This document shows positions 34,158-42,309 of a DNA stretch of 64,000 nt, in pieces (position 1 is the first letter of the stretch; each line of letters starts with the position of its first letter). The position numbers were made by a program, and so were the translations under genes. The notes below the pieces were generated by a model. It was not told the origin of the DNA. It ran no database searches and saw only the letters and a list, made by a program, of their open reading frames with translations. The stretch covers positions 1 to 64,000 of the forward strand of contig JBBRCZ010000011.1 of assembly GCA_038204425.1 (NCBI GenBank), given 5' to 3'. Source of the stretch: Spirochaetia bacterium. Its GTDB lineage: Bacteria > Spirochaetota > Spirochaetia > DSM-27196 > Salinispiraceae.

Positions 34158-36320
34158 ATGAGTTTGCAGTCAATCGGTCGTTTTAGGATTTCAGCAGGTA
34201 GCGCCTTACCATATGGAGCGACCTTCACACCTTACGGTGTCAACTTTTCACTTTTTTCCCGCAATGCCAGCGCGGTAACCCTTTGTATTTTTTCTGATCC
34301 GCAGGATGCCGAAGCAGAAGTACGCATTAGTCTTGATCCTATGCTCAACAAAACTGGTGATATTTGGCATGTACTTATTAACAATGCGCTGCCAGGTATG
34401 CTTTATCTCTATAGCGTTGATGGCCCGTTTGCACCCAAGCGAGGTTTTCGATTCAACAAATACAAGCATTTGATTGACCCGTATGCAAAAGCCTTGACCG
34501 GTGGTTTTCGCTGGGACTTTTCGGGTACTGTCGCTTACGATCCAGATTCGCCGGAAAAGGATCTTTCTTTTTCTGAAACGCAAGACTTGTCAGTGCTACC
34601 AAAGTGTATTGTAGTTGACGATAACGATTTTGACTGGCAGGGCGACAAGCCGCTCAATTACCAACTAAAGCATTCAGTGATCTACGAAACCCACGTTAAG
34701 GGTTTGACCGCCCACGCAAGTTCTAAAGTAGAACATCCAGGCACCTATCGTGGCGTAATAGAGATGATCCCCTATTTAAAGAGTCTGGGTATCACCTCGC
34801 TTGAGTTTTTGCCCACTCAAGAATTTGATGAATTTGAGTACCAAGACAGAACCAATCCGATGACCGGTGAACCACTCAAAAACTATTGGGGTTACAGCAC
34901 GATTGCTTTCTTTGCTCCCAAGGCTAGCTATGCAGCCGACGGCGCCAACGGGCAGCAGGTCAATGAGTTTAAGGAGATGGTTCGCGAGTTACACAAAGCA
35001 GGCCTTGAGGTGATTATGGACGTGGTCTTTAATCATACTGGTGAAGGCAATGAAATGGGTTACACTTACAGTTTTAAAGGCATAGACAACAAGATCTTCT
35101 ATATGCTGGAGCCAGACAATCAACGTTACTATCGCAACTACTCTGGCTGCGGTAACACGGTCAACTGCAACCATCCTGTAGTTAGAGGCTTTATAGTTGA
35201 CTGTTTGCGCTATTGGGTCCTTGAGATGCATGTTGACGGATTTAGGTTTGACCTTGGTAGCATCCTTGGGCGCGACGAAAACGGCAATATTATGCATAAT
35301 CCGCCAACCTTGAGTCGGATTGCCGAAGATCCAATCCTGCGCAACACCAAGATTATCGCCGAGGCATGGGATGCTGGAGGCGCCTATCAAGTGGGTAGCT
35401 TCCCCGGCGGGCGTTGGGCAGAATGGAATGACCGCTTTAGAGATGATATGCGACGCTTTTGGAAAGGAGATCATGGTTTGGTTGCAGCTTTTGCAACCAG
35501 GTTTGCAGGAAGTTCGGACCTCTATGGCGATGACGGTCGCAAGCCCGAGCACAGCATCAACTACATAACAGCGCATGACGGTTTTACGCTTAACGACATG
35601 CTCAGCTACAATGAAAAGCACAATTTTTTAAACGGGGAGAATAACAACGACGGAAACAGCCACAACCTAAGTTGGAATTATGGTATGGAAGGTGAAAGTC
35701 GCGACGAAGAAGTGCTTTGTGTCAGAAATCGCCAAACCAAGAACTTTTTGGCTACGCTAATGCTGTCTATGGGAACTCCTATGATGCTTGGTGGCGACGA
35801 GTTTAGAAGGTCGCAGTTTGGCAACAATAACGCTTATTGTCAGGACAATGCTATTTCCTGGTACGATTATACAATAACCAAAAAGCATTCTGATATCGTT
35901 AGGTTTACGAGCATCCTGATCGCCTTTAGATCTAAGCATCCAGTTTTTAGACGTCCGGAGTTTTTTACTGGCCGCGACAATACAAATAACAACATACCCG
36001 ACGTAGACTGGTTTGATGAGCATGGCCATGCGCTTGATTGGCAGAGAGAAGAAGGCATAATGGCACTTAGGCTTGACGGAAACAAACACGAAATCGGCCA
36101 TAACATTGACGACAACGACGTCTACATCATGGTCAATGCTAGTTCATTCGATCAATTTTTTGTGGTTTGTCTGCCCCGCAAAGGCAGTCAATGGCACAGG
36201 GTAATTGATACTTCATTAGAAAGTCCAGAAGATATTGTTGAAAACTGGCAGGATAATGTTTGGGACCATAAAGCACGCTATTTGGTAGAAAGCCGCTCGA
36301 TGGTAGTTCTGCTTTCTTAG
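34158..36320 (+). CDS. glgX: Glycogen debranching enzyme (isoamylase, GH13)
   Basis: GVNFSLFS, IYETHVKG, NYWGYST, DVVFNHT, NYSGCGN, DGFRFDL, IAEAWD, AHDGFTLND, GNNNAYCQDN. Confidence 0.96.
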   Translation: MSLQSIGRFRISAGSALPYGATFTPYGVNFSLFSRNASAVTLCIFSDPQDAEAEVRISLDPMLNKTGDIWHVLINNALPGMLYLYSVDGPFAPKRGFRFNKYKHLIDPYAKALTGGFRWDFSGTVAYDPDSPEKDLSFSETQDLSVLPKCIVVDDNDFDWQGDKPLNYQLKHSVIYETHVKGLTAHASSKVEHPGTYRGVIEMIPYLKSLGITSLEFLPTQEFDEFEYQDRTNPMTGEPLKNYWGYSTIAFFAPKASYAADGANGQQVNEFKEMVRELHKAGLEVIMDVVFNHTGEGNEMGYTYSFKGIDNKIFYMLEPDNQRYYRNYSGCGNTVNCNHPVVRGFIVDCLRYWVLEMHVDGFRFDLGSILGRDENGNIMHNPPTLSRIAEDPILRNTKIIAEAWDAGGAYQVGSFPGGRWAEWNDRFRDDMRRFWKGDHGLVAAFATRFAGSSDLYGDDGRKPEHSINYITAHDGFTLNDMLSYNEKHNFLNGENNNDGNSHNLSWNYGMEGESRDEEVLCVRNRQTKNFLATLMLSMGTPMMLGGDEFRRSQFGNNNAYCQDNAISWYDYTITKKHSDIVRFTSILIAFRSKHPVFRRPEFFTGRDNTNNNIPDVDWFDEHGHALDWQREEGIMALRLDGNKHEIGHNIDDNDVYIMVNASSFDQFFVVCLPRKGSQWHRVIDTSLESPEDIVENWQDNVWDHKARYLVESRSMVVLLS

Positions 36321-36390: not shown

Positions 36391-36591
36391 TTGCCAGTTT
36401 ACAAAGCAAGTTGGTATATTCTATAGAGGGAGGATCAAAAGACAACTATGCCAGATGGCAGTTTATGCGAACAACGCATTTTTACTTACCCTCCCTTGTT
36501 ACTTACTTAAGCCCAGTGGCCAACAGGTCTCAACTGCTTATGATAGCGTACCTGTAGAGGGGAGGATCAACCTTTACTACAGGAGCCCTTG
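36391..36591 (+). promoter_or_regulatory. Putative promoter and structured 5' leader of corA
   Basis: TTGCCA(36391)-18-TATATT(36415) with extended TG; duplicated TAGAGGG(G)AGGATCAA; CCTGTAG/CTACAGG hairpin covering the AGGAG RBS. Confidence 0.55.
36448..36510 (+). CDS. Putative 20-aa leader peptide MPDGSLCEQRIFTYPPLLLT
   Basis: ATG 36448 to TAA 36510; GGAGG 14 nt upstream (long spacing); translation unproven. Confidence 0.4.
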   Translation: MPDGSLCEQRIFTYPPLLLT

Positions 36592-37521
36592 ATGATTACA
36601 CTACTCAAAGATAATGGCCGGGGCTTTTACCCGGTAGAAGACTTACAAGATGGCGTCTGGGTTCGAGTGATCGATCCGGGTTCTGATGAACAAGAGGACC
36701 TTAAAGAACGGTTTCAGCTTGATGACGACGTTTTGTCTGACATGCTTGATGCCGATGAGCAATCGCGCATAGAAAAAGAAGACGATGGTCTGACGTGCAT
36801 CATTCGCTTACCCATATTTGCCCCTGATCGAGAGGTTCCCTACTTCACGGTGCCATTTGGTATCATTGTGCGTACTGGCGTGGTGATAACCGTAAGCCTT
36901 TTTGACAATCCCATCGCCCAGGACATGCTGCATAGACGCATCCGGGGAATAGATCTCTTTAAGCCACATAACTTGATTCTCAATACAATCTTGCGTTCTG
37001 CTTTGTATTACATGCGCTACCTCAAGGACATAAATCGTCGAACCACCACCATAGAACGTGACCTGCACGGCTCGGTCAAGAACGCAGATTTGACTCAACT
37101 GTTACATTTCCAAAAATCATTTGTCTTCTTCAATACCAGCTTGAGGTCCAATGAGCTTTTGTTAGAAAAGATCAATAAACTTTCGGCCTGGCAACTTAAT
37201 GAGGACGAACAGGAAACACTTGAAGATGCCAGAATAGAACTCAAACAAGCTATTGAAATGGCTAAGATTTATTCCAATATTCTTTCTGGCATGGTTGATA
37301 CCTTTTCTTCGGTGGTGGCTAACAATCTCAACCAGGTGATGAAGCGTCTAACGCTGGTTAACCTGACGCTGATGATTCCCACTCTCTTGGCCAGCCTCTA
37401 CGGCATGAACGTTACCTTGCCTTTTCAGGAACAAAGCTGGGCATTCTGGGGGATTTTGGCCGTGGCCGTCACGATATCGATCAGTGCCTGGGTTATCTTT
37501 AGGGTCAAAAAACTGTTCTAA
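36592..37521 (+). CDS. corA: CorA-family Mg2+ transporter
   Basis: WVRVIDP, LDADEQSRIE, NNLNQVMKRLT, PTLLASLYGMNV (GMN motif), two C-terminal TM helices. Confidence 0.92.
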   Translation: MITLLKDNGRGFYPVEDLQDGVWVRVIDPGSDEQEDLKERFQLDDDVLSDMLDADEQSRIEKEDDGLTCIIRLPIFAPDREVPYFTVPFGIIVRTGVVITVSLFDNPIAQDMLHRRIRGIDLFKPHNLILNTILRSALYYMRYLKDINRRTTTIERDLHGSVKNADLTQLLHFQKSFVFFNTSLRSNELLLEKINKLSAWQLNEDEQETLEDARIELKQAIEMAKIYSNILSGMVDTFSSVVANNLNQVMKRLTLVNLTLMIPTLLASLYGMNVTLPFQEQSWAFWGILAVAVTISISAWVIFRVKKLF

Positions 37522-39592: not shown

Positions 39593-39631
39593 AATTTTGC
39601 ACAAAAAATATCTGACTTGGGAGTTGTTTGC

Positions 39632-40885
39632 ATGATCAAGATTCGTCTGCCGCTTCCATCGAGGACTCAGTTGGAGCAAGACTTTGGCGCTCATGTGCAA
39701 ACTCTCGAGCATCTGGCCTTTGAGCTACACAAAAGGATCAAACATTTGCTTTCTGACTCGGGTATTCAGGTTTCGATAAAGTATCGCGTCAAAAGCTTTG
39801 AATCCTACTACAAAAAAATTCTGCGACGGGTGAGTTCGCCACCCAGCGAAAATGACTGGTTTAGCATTACTGACTTGCTTGGAATAAGGCTTGTTTGTCC
39901 CTTTATTGCTGACATCCCCGTTGCCGAAAAAATATTGACTTCCAACTTTGAGGTAATCGAGCATGTCCGTAAGGGCGCTGAGTTTAGCTTTAAGGAATTT
40001 GGTTACGAGTCTTTGCATTATCTGATTACCCTTCCTCAGGACATCTCAGAGGGCTTTTTGCTACCAGATGGTTTGGTCTGCGAAGTTCAAATGCGCACCA
40101 TCTTGCAGGACGCCTGGGCAGAAGTTGAGCATGAACTAGTCTACAAAAGTGACTATACGCCCTTTGATGAGTCACTACGGCGCAAGCTCGCTGCCTTAAA
40201 CGCCAATCTTTCCTTGGCAGACATGGTGTTTCACGAGATTCGCGAGTATCAACGAGAGTTACAGCGTCAGCTCAAGAAACGGCGCAATGATTTTTGGGAT
40301 CTGGTTCGGCATAGTGAAAACGAACAAAAAGGAAAAGACCAAGTTCCGCTTCAATTGATGCGGCATGATGAAGATGGCCCCCAACTGAGTCAAGTTGCCA
40401 TGGGGCATGTGGACGTGGTTGATGGTCATTTACTGGGTGCCTTGTACGCTCACAACAATCATCGTTATGAAGAAGCGCTCGAACGTTACACTACCATTCT
40501 CAAGCTCAATCCAAGACCGGCTGTTAAGACCATAGTTTTAGTGCATCGTGGTATGGTGGCTTTTGCTCTGGGTGATTATGTTGATGCGATTCAAGATTTT
40601 GGACGCAGTCTCGATGGAGAAGGAGACCACCGCAAGGCCTACTACTACCGTGCTGTTGCGCATCGCCAAATGGGCGCCTTTACCGAAGCTCTCGATGACC
40701 TCAATCAGTGTTTGGCGATTGATCCTTATCAAGCCGAAGCCCTGCTCAGCCGCGGTCAAACCCTAGTCAAACTGGGTGACTACTCAGCTGCCTTACAAGA
40801 CGTTGATGCTGCAATCGCACTCAGGCCTTCAGATGAAGAAGCCCATAGATTTAGAGATCTAATAACCAACAAGCTCGGTGTTTAG
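39632..40885 (+). CDS. Small alarmone ((p)ppGpp) synthetase with C-terminal TPR repeats
   Basis: RVKSFESYYKK, DLLGIRL, GYESLHY, EVQMRTILQDAWAEVEH; about four TPR-like repeats. Confidence 0.9.
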   Translation: MIKIRLPLPSRTQLEQDFGAHVQTLEHLAFELHKRIKHLLSDSGIQVSIKYRVKSFESYYKKILRRVSSPPSENDWFSITDLLGIRLVCPFIADIPVAEKILTSNFEVIEHVRKGAEFSFKEFGYESLHYLITLPQDISEGFLLPDGLVCEVQMRTILQDAWAEVEHELVYKSDYTPFDESLRRKLAALNANLSLADMVFHEIREYQRELQRQLKKRRNDFWDLVRHSENEQKGKDQVPLQLMRHDEDGPQLSQVAMGHVDVVDGHLLGALYAHNNHRYEEALERYTTILKLNPRPAVKTIVLVHRGMVAFALGDYVDAIQDFGRSLDGEGDHRKAYYYRAVAHRQMGAFTEALDDLNQCLAIDPYQAEALLSRGQTLVKLGDYSAALQDVDAAIALRPSDEEAHRFRDLITNKLGV

Positions 40886-42309
40886 GGTAGGATTTCGAGT
40901 GAAAAGCGGGATCTAAGCGCAGTCCAGAGTTGGTCTACGGGGAAGTAGCGATTGCGACCTATCATCGAAACACCGTCGCCATAGCGCGCACTATTGTAAC
41001 CCCAGTCTGAGGGAATTGAATCATAGACGATGAAATATTTTCTATCCAAACTATATCCTTTTATAGCAATATAGTGGCCACCTTTGTCTTTGTAGTGTTG
41101 GCCAATTAGATCTTTCTGTGGATTCTGAGCCATTGCAACCCCGGCCATATCGTAACTTACCGCCAGCAAGTGGCCTCTATCAATTACATCAAAAATATCA
41201 GCAGGGGAGTTAAGGGTACGTTGTTGCCAAGAAACGCCATAGTAGTCGAGGGAATTTTGCATATCCTTAATCGTGATGGCACCAATGCCTTGCCAGCCTA
41301 TTAATTGACGGACGTCAATCACTTGCGTTTGAGTTCCCTTTGCCCAGCGAATCGCCATAGCGGTGACCGAGGGGCCACAATTAGAAGTGGTTTTAGTATT
41401 ATATTGAGTCAGGTACCAATTGATGTCTGGCCTGTCAACGTGTTTGCTTGGTACTGGACTAACGAACACGTGGTACTCACGACCGATCTCATTTACAATC
41501 AACATAAAGCCCGCAAGTTTTGCTTGCCAAACGTGGTAAGTGCCTACGGTGCCTTTGCTCTCAAGACTTTGCTCAAGTCCATCCGAACCCTTAAAGGTCT
41601 TTATCTCGCCTTCGATAGTAAACATGCCACCAATAGAAGGCACATTTAGATAGATGCTGCCCGGCGTATCTTCCTTGCCTCGCCCAAAGTCAGAAATAGG
41701 CAAGGATTCTTGAGACGGGCCAGAAGCACGCAAAGCAAGGCTGACTGCTTCCATTTCAGTGTTTGAAGAGGCAAGTGAAGCTGTGTTGGACTTGGAAGAA
41801 CCCGAAGCTTTTTTGTCGGACCCAGAATAAGCTGATCGCCGCACAGTTGAGGATAATTTGCTTTCTTTGCCGATACGCATTCCAGACACGCTATACACAG
41901 TTTCCAAAGGGGTGGAACTGGTCTCCACATTGCTTAAACCCTGGAACTCAACGTTGCCATTGCGGCTACCTTCGAGCTGTACGACATAGTTTCCACCTTG
42001 TAAGTAAACGCCAAATACCGTGTGACCACTGGCTAGTTGTCCGTTGCCTAAGTTCCACAAGTAATTAATACCTGCTTGCGGGTCGACAGAAAATTGAACA
42101 ATTGAATGAGCACCATCAAACCACTGGGTGGTTTTGATAGGCAAGTGACTCGCTTCAACGGCGCCAATACGAAGGTTGGGGTTTTCTAAGACACTTTGGC
42201 GCGCGCCATATTCGTAGAACAAGCCTATACCAAGTGAAAAAGCGATAAGGGCTGTCCAAAGACAAACTCCTGCCACCATTGCATACTTAATTTTGCTTGC
42301 TCTGCTCAT
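40882..42309 (-). CDS. Membrane-anchored PKD-like + C39-like cysteine peptidase
   Basis: N-terminal TM; YLWNLGNG PKD motif; QYN..SNCGPSVTAMA, GHYIAIKGY, VYDS (Cys-His-Asp). Confidence 0.7.
   Translation of the reverse strand: MSRASKIKYAMVAGVCLWTALIAFSLGIGLFYEYGARQSVLENPNLRIGAVEASHLPIKTTQWFDGAHSIVQFSVDPQAGINYLWNLGNGQLASGHTVFGVYLQGGNYVVQLEGSRNGNVEFQGLSNVETSSTPLETVYSVSGMRIGKESKLSSTVRRSAYSGSDKKASGSSKSNTASLASSNTEMEAVSLALRASGPSQESLPISDFGRGKEDTPGSIYLNVPSIGGMFTIEGEIKTFKGSDGLEQSLESKGTVGTYHVWQAKLAGFMLIVNEIGREYHVFVSPVPSKHVDRPDINWYLTQYNTKTTSNCGPSVTAMAIRWAKGTQTQVIDVRQLIGWQGIGAITIKDMQNSLDYYGVSWQQRTLNSPADIFDVIDRGHLLAVSYDMAGVAMAQNPQKDLIGQHYKDKGGHYIAIKGYSLDRKYFIVYDSIPSDWGYNSARYGDGVSMIGRNRYFPVDQLWTALRSRFSLEILP

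Follow-up and report, generated by a model that had tools for sequence, protein, structure and literature searches.

The leader of the CorA-family gene at positions 36592-37521, within the 64,000-nucleotide window analyzed here from a Spirochaetia bacterium, carries a conserved mini-gene that begins with an acidic motif and lies among mutually exclusive RNA pairings. We observed this anatomy, its conservation in homologous loci, and its association with Mg2+-transporter genes in the sequences themselves. The leader is likely a translational attenuator operated by the ribosome and expected to open the corA ribosome-binding site (RBS) at low Mg2+. In folding models, an OFF fold (helix A:B plus a hairpin) alternates with an ON fold (helix B:C), and the position of the ribosome on the upstream open reading frame (uORF) sets the choice. 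A preliminary description of this leader had placed the sensor at two consecutive prolines of the uORF. The feature is real, but that sensor is wrong; the likely sensor is the acidic first codons of the uORF, rather than its two prolines.

The leader sits between glgX (34158-36320) and the corA gene. The latter, on the forward strand, encodes a divalent-cation transporter of 309 aa with a GMN motif and a PF01544 match of 173 bits, and its homologues align from the Met at 36592. TIGR00383 scored 109 bits, under the family cut-off of 200.75. The nearest named homologues are from Spirochaetaceae and Treponema, at 44–50% identity, and this CorA subfamily is present in 4 of 98 other genomes of the order (47–49% identity) and in none of seven in the family. 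The host genome, which is 95.6% complete, encodes two CorA genes, as well as Rho, bL31, and CsrA. The second CorA paralogue (L024, G000:C5:58727-59569) is distant, at 31% identity, and has no obvious uORF of the acidic-start type. Neither MgtE nor an M-box (RF00380, threshold 44 bits) was found in this genome. As the preliminary description anticipated for the M-box, no Rfam family reached threshold in the corA leader, and nothing came near it. Elsewhere in the window, a RelA/SpoT-domain TPR protein (39617-40885) adjoins a 475-aa ORF (40882-42309) that carries PKD and Peptidase_C39_2 domains.

The five sequence observations of the preliminary description were checked coordinate by coordinate, and all are present. 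Two G-rich copies lie at 36424-36438 (element A) and 36555-36570 (element C), and between them is a pyrimidine segment at 36489-36497 (element B). The exact core of the G-rich repeat is 11 nt, a length that dinucleotide shuffles of 36391-36594 attained once in 300; in the model, the repeat is an expected by-product, since the A and C strands both pair with the same B. Element A contains the SD sequence of the uORF, GGAGG (36429-36433), and is predicted to pair with B when the leader is ribosome-free. The uORF itself has 20 codons (36448-36510), with homologous uORFs in other loci, and its ATG lies 14 nt from the SD, a long spacer for this genome (mode 5–8 nt). Its N-terminal Pro-Asp-Gly-Ser(AGT) motif (36451-36462) is a reduced form of the family motif and the putative sensor. 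Element B, read here as Pro15-Pro16-Leu17, contains CCTCCCT (36490-36496), with the two proline codons at 36490-36495, and its predicted partner is either A or C. Downstream, the OFF hairpin (36551-36583, about −15 kcal/mol alone) has stem arms at 36551-36557 and 36577-36583 and covers the 5′ part of the corA SD (AGGAG, 36581-36585). This hairpin had been described as burying the corA RBS; it is real, but its core stem takes only AGG (36581-36583) of the SD. The anti-SD strand (36550-36557) forms the 5′ arm of the hairpin, and in the predicted ON fold, with an early ribosome, its 36550-36555 portion pairs with an alternative partner at 36523-36528. Likewise, 36558-36565 of element C would pair with B in the ON fold and otherwise lie within the OFF hairpin. 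The overall fold of the leader is unremarkable (z = −1.59, with 13 of 200 shuffles equally stable).

A second uORF, of 45 codons (36455-36592), does end in TGATG on the corA start as previously described, but a functional role for it did not hold up: it has no SD match in our scan and no counterpart in any of the other 41 leaders of the 42 compared, and it is probably incidental. Upstream, a candidate sigma70-type promoter at 36391-36420 (TTGCCA-18-TATATT, with a TG-extended −10) has a predicted start at about 36426-36428. It was the best site at 10/12, among four found versus 1.9 in shuffles, and 30 of 42 leaders have a −10-like hexamer located 18–90 nt upstream of the uORF, versus 4 within coding sequence. 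A weaker promoter-like site (36517-36544, 9/12) lies farther downstream, and its use would bypass the uORF.

Folding models were then used to estimate the cost of opening the corA RBS. This cost is 8.3 kcal/mol on ribosome-free RNA versus 3.8 kcal/mol with a ribosome at initiation. With the 5′ end and SD kept blocked, it is 3.8–4.0 kcal/mol for a ribosome on codons 1–10, approximately half the ribosome-free value (8.3 to about 3.9 kcal/mol), and 7.4–9.1 kcal/mol on codons 11–20. The resulting switch has a ΔΔG of 4.0 kcal/mol, a gain that a single one of 300 sequences with a shuffled middle region equaled. With a footprint that frees the SD once the ribosome has left codon 1, helix A:B forms again, and the leader is ON only at codon 1; the modeled ON state therefore requires that A stay occupied, because release of the SD lets A:B shut the site. 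Blocking B in the model abolished the switch (4.0 to 8.5 kcal/mol), as did blocking C, and blocking the anti-SD strand opened the RBS constitutively (8.3 to 3.7 kcal/mol). In a short transcript from the proximal promoter, the RBS would be locked at 8.0 kcal/mol.

These computed states suggest how the leader would operate. Transcription would probably begin near 36427, and on ribosome-free RNA, A:B and the C-containing hairpin would hide the corA SD (OFF). If a ribosome or a 30S subunit remained on the SD and initial codons of the uORF, it would occupy A and leave B free; B could then pair with C, the anti-SD strand would pair with 36523-36528, and the corA SD would open (ON). A ribosome past codon 10 would cover B, with A:B re-forming after its release, so that the leader returns to OFF. 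By analogy with MgtL and MgtQ, the early hold may come from the N-terminal motif, whose acidic, proline, and small residues would pause or destabilize the 70S ribosome more at low Mg2+. Under that condition, the ribosome would lag or split on the first codons, keeping A and freeing B. In the available text of the sources, N-terminal Asp, Glu, and Pro destabilize the ribosome and bulky residues counteract this (bioRxiv 10.1101/2021.02.02.429294), and ribosome lag or splitting at such motifs is reported at low Mg2+ (bioRxiv 10.1101/2021.02.02.429294; PMC11282234). A lingering 30S or repeated re-initiation would be required, since clean drop-off leaving bare RNA would give OFF; a lingering 30S is suggested for corL in the accessible portion of PMC11552253. 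The single acid of this uORF, versus two in 29 of 42 leaders, and the long SD spacer count against the attenuator.

We also examined folding across homologous leaders. The 42 leaders compared were curated by eye and thinned from 60 to <75% identity; they are related to one another and were selected for an early acid. Of these, 33 were tested with shuffles, five were set aside, their uORF extending past the corA start, and four long leaders were folded without shuffles. The 33 tested leaders had a mean gain of 2.2 kcal/mol versus −0.4 kcal/mol in shuffles; the gain exceeded 1 kcal/mol in 21 and was matched by at most 1 of 25 shuffles in 20, with five switching in the wrong direction. Three of the four long leaders are from the closest relatives, and two of the four, both from this group of relatives, also switched in the wrong direction. 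An A:B helix is predicted in 35 of the 42 leaders; in 30 of those 35, B switches to a partner farther downstream. In the five leaders (of 42) with a uORF that extends past the corA start and is out of frame with it, full translation would correspond to the OFF state there too. Short leaders with the uORF running across the corA SD and start in another frame were seen at L111, L113, L115, L117, L120, L121, L146, and L175, and in such leaders full translation would itself occlude corA. Both the uORF and the three-way pairing recur in homologous leaders. Formal covariation was weak, at 2 of 23 consensus pairs (RNAalifold, on a poor alignment of 10 related leaders). MAFFT alignment across divergent leaders gave nothing informative.

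Short SD-preceded ORFs before CorA homologues start with MDSDPGS, MDTDPGS, MSDPDGGGS, MDGGSS, MDDGS, MPDSDG, and similar sequences, giving a family motif of M-D-x-D-P-G-S. The MPDGS start of the uORF studied here is the most reduced form among the leaders, with one acid in codons 2–6. We applied a rule for the uORF (an SD, an early Asp or Glu, and an in-frame AGT), written post hoc with the data in view, to the spirochaete-group corA loci whose upstream sequence was 200 nt or longer, which left out one short locus. It was satisfied at 39 of 66 related loci, versus 60 of 1,925 genes (3%) of the host genome; among the 39, L167 and L178 look like chance passes, and in L108 a neighboring ORF was picked. 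The remaining 27 of the 66 loci have no uORF by this rule, and of the non-spirochaete corA loci only 4 of 71 satisfied it. An acid in codons 2–5 is present in 42 of 42 leaders, this having been the selection criterion. In 35 spirochaete uORF starts chosen without any Ser rule, AGT occurs within nt 10–30 in 30, always in frame, and AGT makes up 22% of the Ser codons of the host genome. Universality of AGU across the family was rejected: only 5 of the 21 ORFs from outside the spirochaetes carry it in frame, and several of these ORFs are probably there by chance. The uORF SD spacer is 12 nt in the three closest relatives.

Several variants of the uORF were observed alongside. Long uORFs of 56–70 codons, starting MGES, rich in Asp, Gly, and Ser, and with a YHERT stretch in common, characterize the closest relatives L002, L003, L004, and L160. 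The uORF start codon is itself predicted to be covered by a small conserved hairpin at L114, L138, L142, L144, L145, L149, L158, and L159. Other acidic-start uORFs, outside the Gly-Ser(AGT) form, precede corA at L034 and L044, L050-L081, and L070, L095, and L107; by record title, such starts include MDDYY in Bacteroidales/Draconibacterium and MDSGHS, MDTIPQY, and MKPDPS in Clostridia.

Specificity was assessed by scanning for the motif alone, independent of corA, with strict patterns that miss the leader studied here, whose motif is shorter. In metagenomes, the scan returned 23 loci, some of them duplicates, of which 21 precede CorA or MgtE-type genes: CorA at 19 (17 by blastp and two by tblastn) and MgtE_N at two, which share one leader, with two loci too incomplete to call. 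Within the phylum to which the window belongs, matches occurred in 11 of 401 genomes, all 11 just upstream of CorA, versus none with a reversed-pattern control; as the pattern was derived from the same loci, this result speaks to specificity only. In the phylum of genome G496 (L037, titled Paradesulfitobacterium), 6 of 401 genomes matched, three before MgtE and three before CorA, one of the latter being the seed. Some loci of genus g100 (L164:919-2349 and others) encode an N-terminal MgtE_N domain fused to CorA, and several of these fusion loci have a uORF of the MDSDPLS type. Among 36 loci scanned for M-box riboswitches, L035, L037, L141, L153, and L212 have one in tandem, upstream of the acidic uORF; the spirochaete leaders in the scan yielded none. 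These five loci would have two layers of Mg2+ control in a single leader, before CorA or MgtE. The tandem M-boxes tie the acidic uORF to Mg2+.

The leader shares features with three enteric systems, here compared through the available parts of the published descriptions. As in leaders of the MgtQ/MgtL/CorL type, we found a short uORF with its own SD before a Mg2+ transporter, with the long spacer of 14 nt; a conserved early acid, often with Pro (P2-D3 here); and, by computation, exclusive helices overlapping the uORF, with weak covariation. The closest parallel is Salmonella mgtQ, in which stems 1:2 and 3:4 alternate with 2:3, Asp2 and Glu5 are needed, and the Pro codon is needed only as a stem element (PMC8092293). 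In common with mgtQ-mgtB (PMC8092293), the leader has an acidic-start uORF and, by prediction, exclusive stems with the transporter RBS hidden in the equivalent of 3:4, a translational output, a Pro codon serving as a stem element, and an OFF state for untranslated RNA. However, mgtQ has 8 codons, is intergenic, precedes the P-type ATPase gene mgtB, and has region 1 inside the ORF, whereas the uORFs of the present family have 17–70 codons, lie in a 5′ leader before CorA or MgtE, and have region 1 in their own SD and region 2 near the uORF end. An MgtQ orthologue would be an 8-codon ORF before mgtB, and the 20 codons before CorA found here led us to reject that assignment. The leader would work like mgtQ but is not a member, and the mechanism itself is not new, as mgtQ already has the same logic.

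The corL (ysgD)-corA leader of E. coli and Salmonella likewise has a uORF before corA, with the uORF SD hidden in stem A (PMC11552253; PMC5314796), and, as predicted for the present leader, uORF translation that is inverse to corA expression (PMC11552253). Its output as described is Rho termination at a rut site, with a non-start mutant ON (PMC11552253; PMC5314796); unlike enteric corL, the present leader places a hairpin on the corA SD, and its ribosome-free fold is predicted to be OFF. The E. coli CorL start, D-T-P-S(AGT)-R, is close to the family starts MDTYPS and MDTDPGS, and in a comparison with one enteric sequence, alignable likeness was confined to the first codons; by sequence, the uORF is at most a candidate orthologue of corL. 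With mgtL-mgtA, the leader shares an N-terminal acidic/Pro motif, E-P-D-P in MgtL, as the putative Mg2+-dependent element (PMC11282234; bioRxiv 10.1101/2021.02.02.429294). By contrast, mgtL as described there has a transcriptional output, more Pro, and no Gly-Ser(AGT), and the uORF here has one acid only. The M-box also controls Mg2+ transporters, and it is missing from this leader and genome and present in tandem at the five loci above.

We weighed the attenuator against other explanations of the same elements. The preliminary description held that stalling at Pro15-Pro16, dependent on EF-P or Pro-tRNA, sets the switch, and we now regard this as very improbable. The Pro-Pro pair does exist in this uORF and occurs in 9 of 42 leaders, mostly of one related group, and prolines matter in MgtL (PMC11552253, in its available text). 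It is, however, missing from the other 33, and in the 25 leaders with SD core pairing inside the uORF, the B-partner segment is read in three frames (11, 7, and 7), as YPP, KPP, ASR, SLL, NLR, and others. Furthermore, a ribosome on Pro15 or Pro16 would cover B and leave the RBS shut at 9.0–10.1 kcal/mol, so a low-Mg2+ stall there would turn the importer off and could at most reinforce the OFF state. With consecutive prolines not conserved and the stall position giving OFF, we do not place the leader among polyproline/EF-P-dependent leaders; under the attenuator explanation, the Pro-Pro codons are a by-product of anti-SD letters. What survives of the earlier reading is a uORF-coupled, non-M-box switch in which a pyrimidine segment is predicted to open the RBS hairpin. 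In the same sequence, the GGA-rich repeats could instead be sites for CsrA or another RNA-binding protein, which would fit the csrA gene in this genome, the preference of CsrA for GGA motifs, and the presence of such motifs in both G-rich copies and in the SD. This is extremely improbable, as these motifs are already accounted for as SD and B-partner and the conserved uORF is left unexplained.

The other alternatives keep the uORF. It is unlikely that the same sensor acts mainly through Rho-dependent termination, with a rut site at 36470-36515, a stretch of 46 nt in which C is abundant (15) and G scarce (3). The rho gene in this genome, the CorL start D-T-P-S(AGT), and the Rho output described for enteric corA (PMC5314796; PMC11552253, as available) favor it, but the downstream hairpin targets the corA SD, the switch acts on the SD in 21 of 33 leaders, and the C-rich stretch falls within the uORF and would be covered during its translation. 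Both outputs may also operate together, untranslated corA mRNA being a target of Rho. It is rather improbable that the switch is real and reads ribosome loading or early elongation (free ribosomes, Ser-tRNA for AGU, or another cation) and not Mg2+ as such. The single acid of this uORF, the AGT enrichment in spirochaete uORF starts (30 of 35, versus 22% of genomic Ser codons), the sufficiency of SD occupancy for the ON fold, and the response of E. coli corA to Mn2+ as well (PMC11552253, available text) point that way; against it, the genes found behind the motif all belong to two unrelated families of Mg2+ transporters, and the motif also stands in tandem with M-boxes. Nor do we think it at all probable that this particular leader is vestigial or bypassed, its uORF barely translated or its proximal promoter in use, with the hairpin only damping expression. 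The 14-nt spacer, the reduced motif, the promoter-like site at 36517-36544, the 27 of 66 homologous loci lacking the uORF by rule, and the 3% of genes passing by chance would all suit a relic. However, the switch elements are all intact and perform better than in 299 of 300 shuffles, the three closest relatives keep a 12-nt spacer, and the short transcript would be locked.

In the literature that we found, enteric bacteria are the only ones in which ribosome-based Mg2+ sensing has been demonstrated, and the way in which Mg2+ is read by the ribosome is described as a still open question (PMC11552253, available text). Our search of openly accessible main texts found no description of an acidic-uORF family outside the enterobacteria, a result limited by the orthologue figure in the mgtQ supplement, which may bear on it. 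With dozens of natural variants, whose N-terminal consensus is tight and whose AGU codon is nearly fixed, the family makes the sensing step dissectable in vitro. As the scans of this genome and of spirochaete leaders yielded no M-box, the acidic-uORF leader is a candidate Mg2+ regulator for spirochaetes. More tentatively, and with considerable doubt, CorL may belong to a wider family of ribosomal Mg2+ sensors, spread across phyla and starting M-D-x-(D-P)-G-S, with the AGU-coded Ser as part of the sensor; AGU after the acidic motif would then be decoded slowly in the A site and keep the ribosome in a fragile state. If so, the module would be portable, found before CorA, MgtE, and MgtE_N-CorA fusions and also stacked behind M-boxes, with an SD hairpin, direct overlap of the start codon, or Rho as its outputs, and spirochaetes without M-boxes would rely on it as their main Mg2+ regulator.
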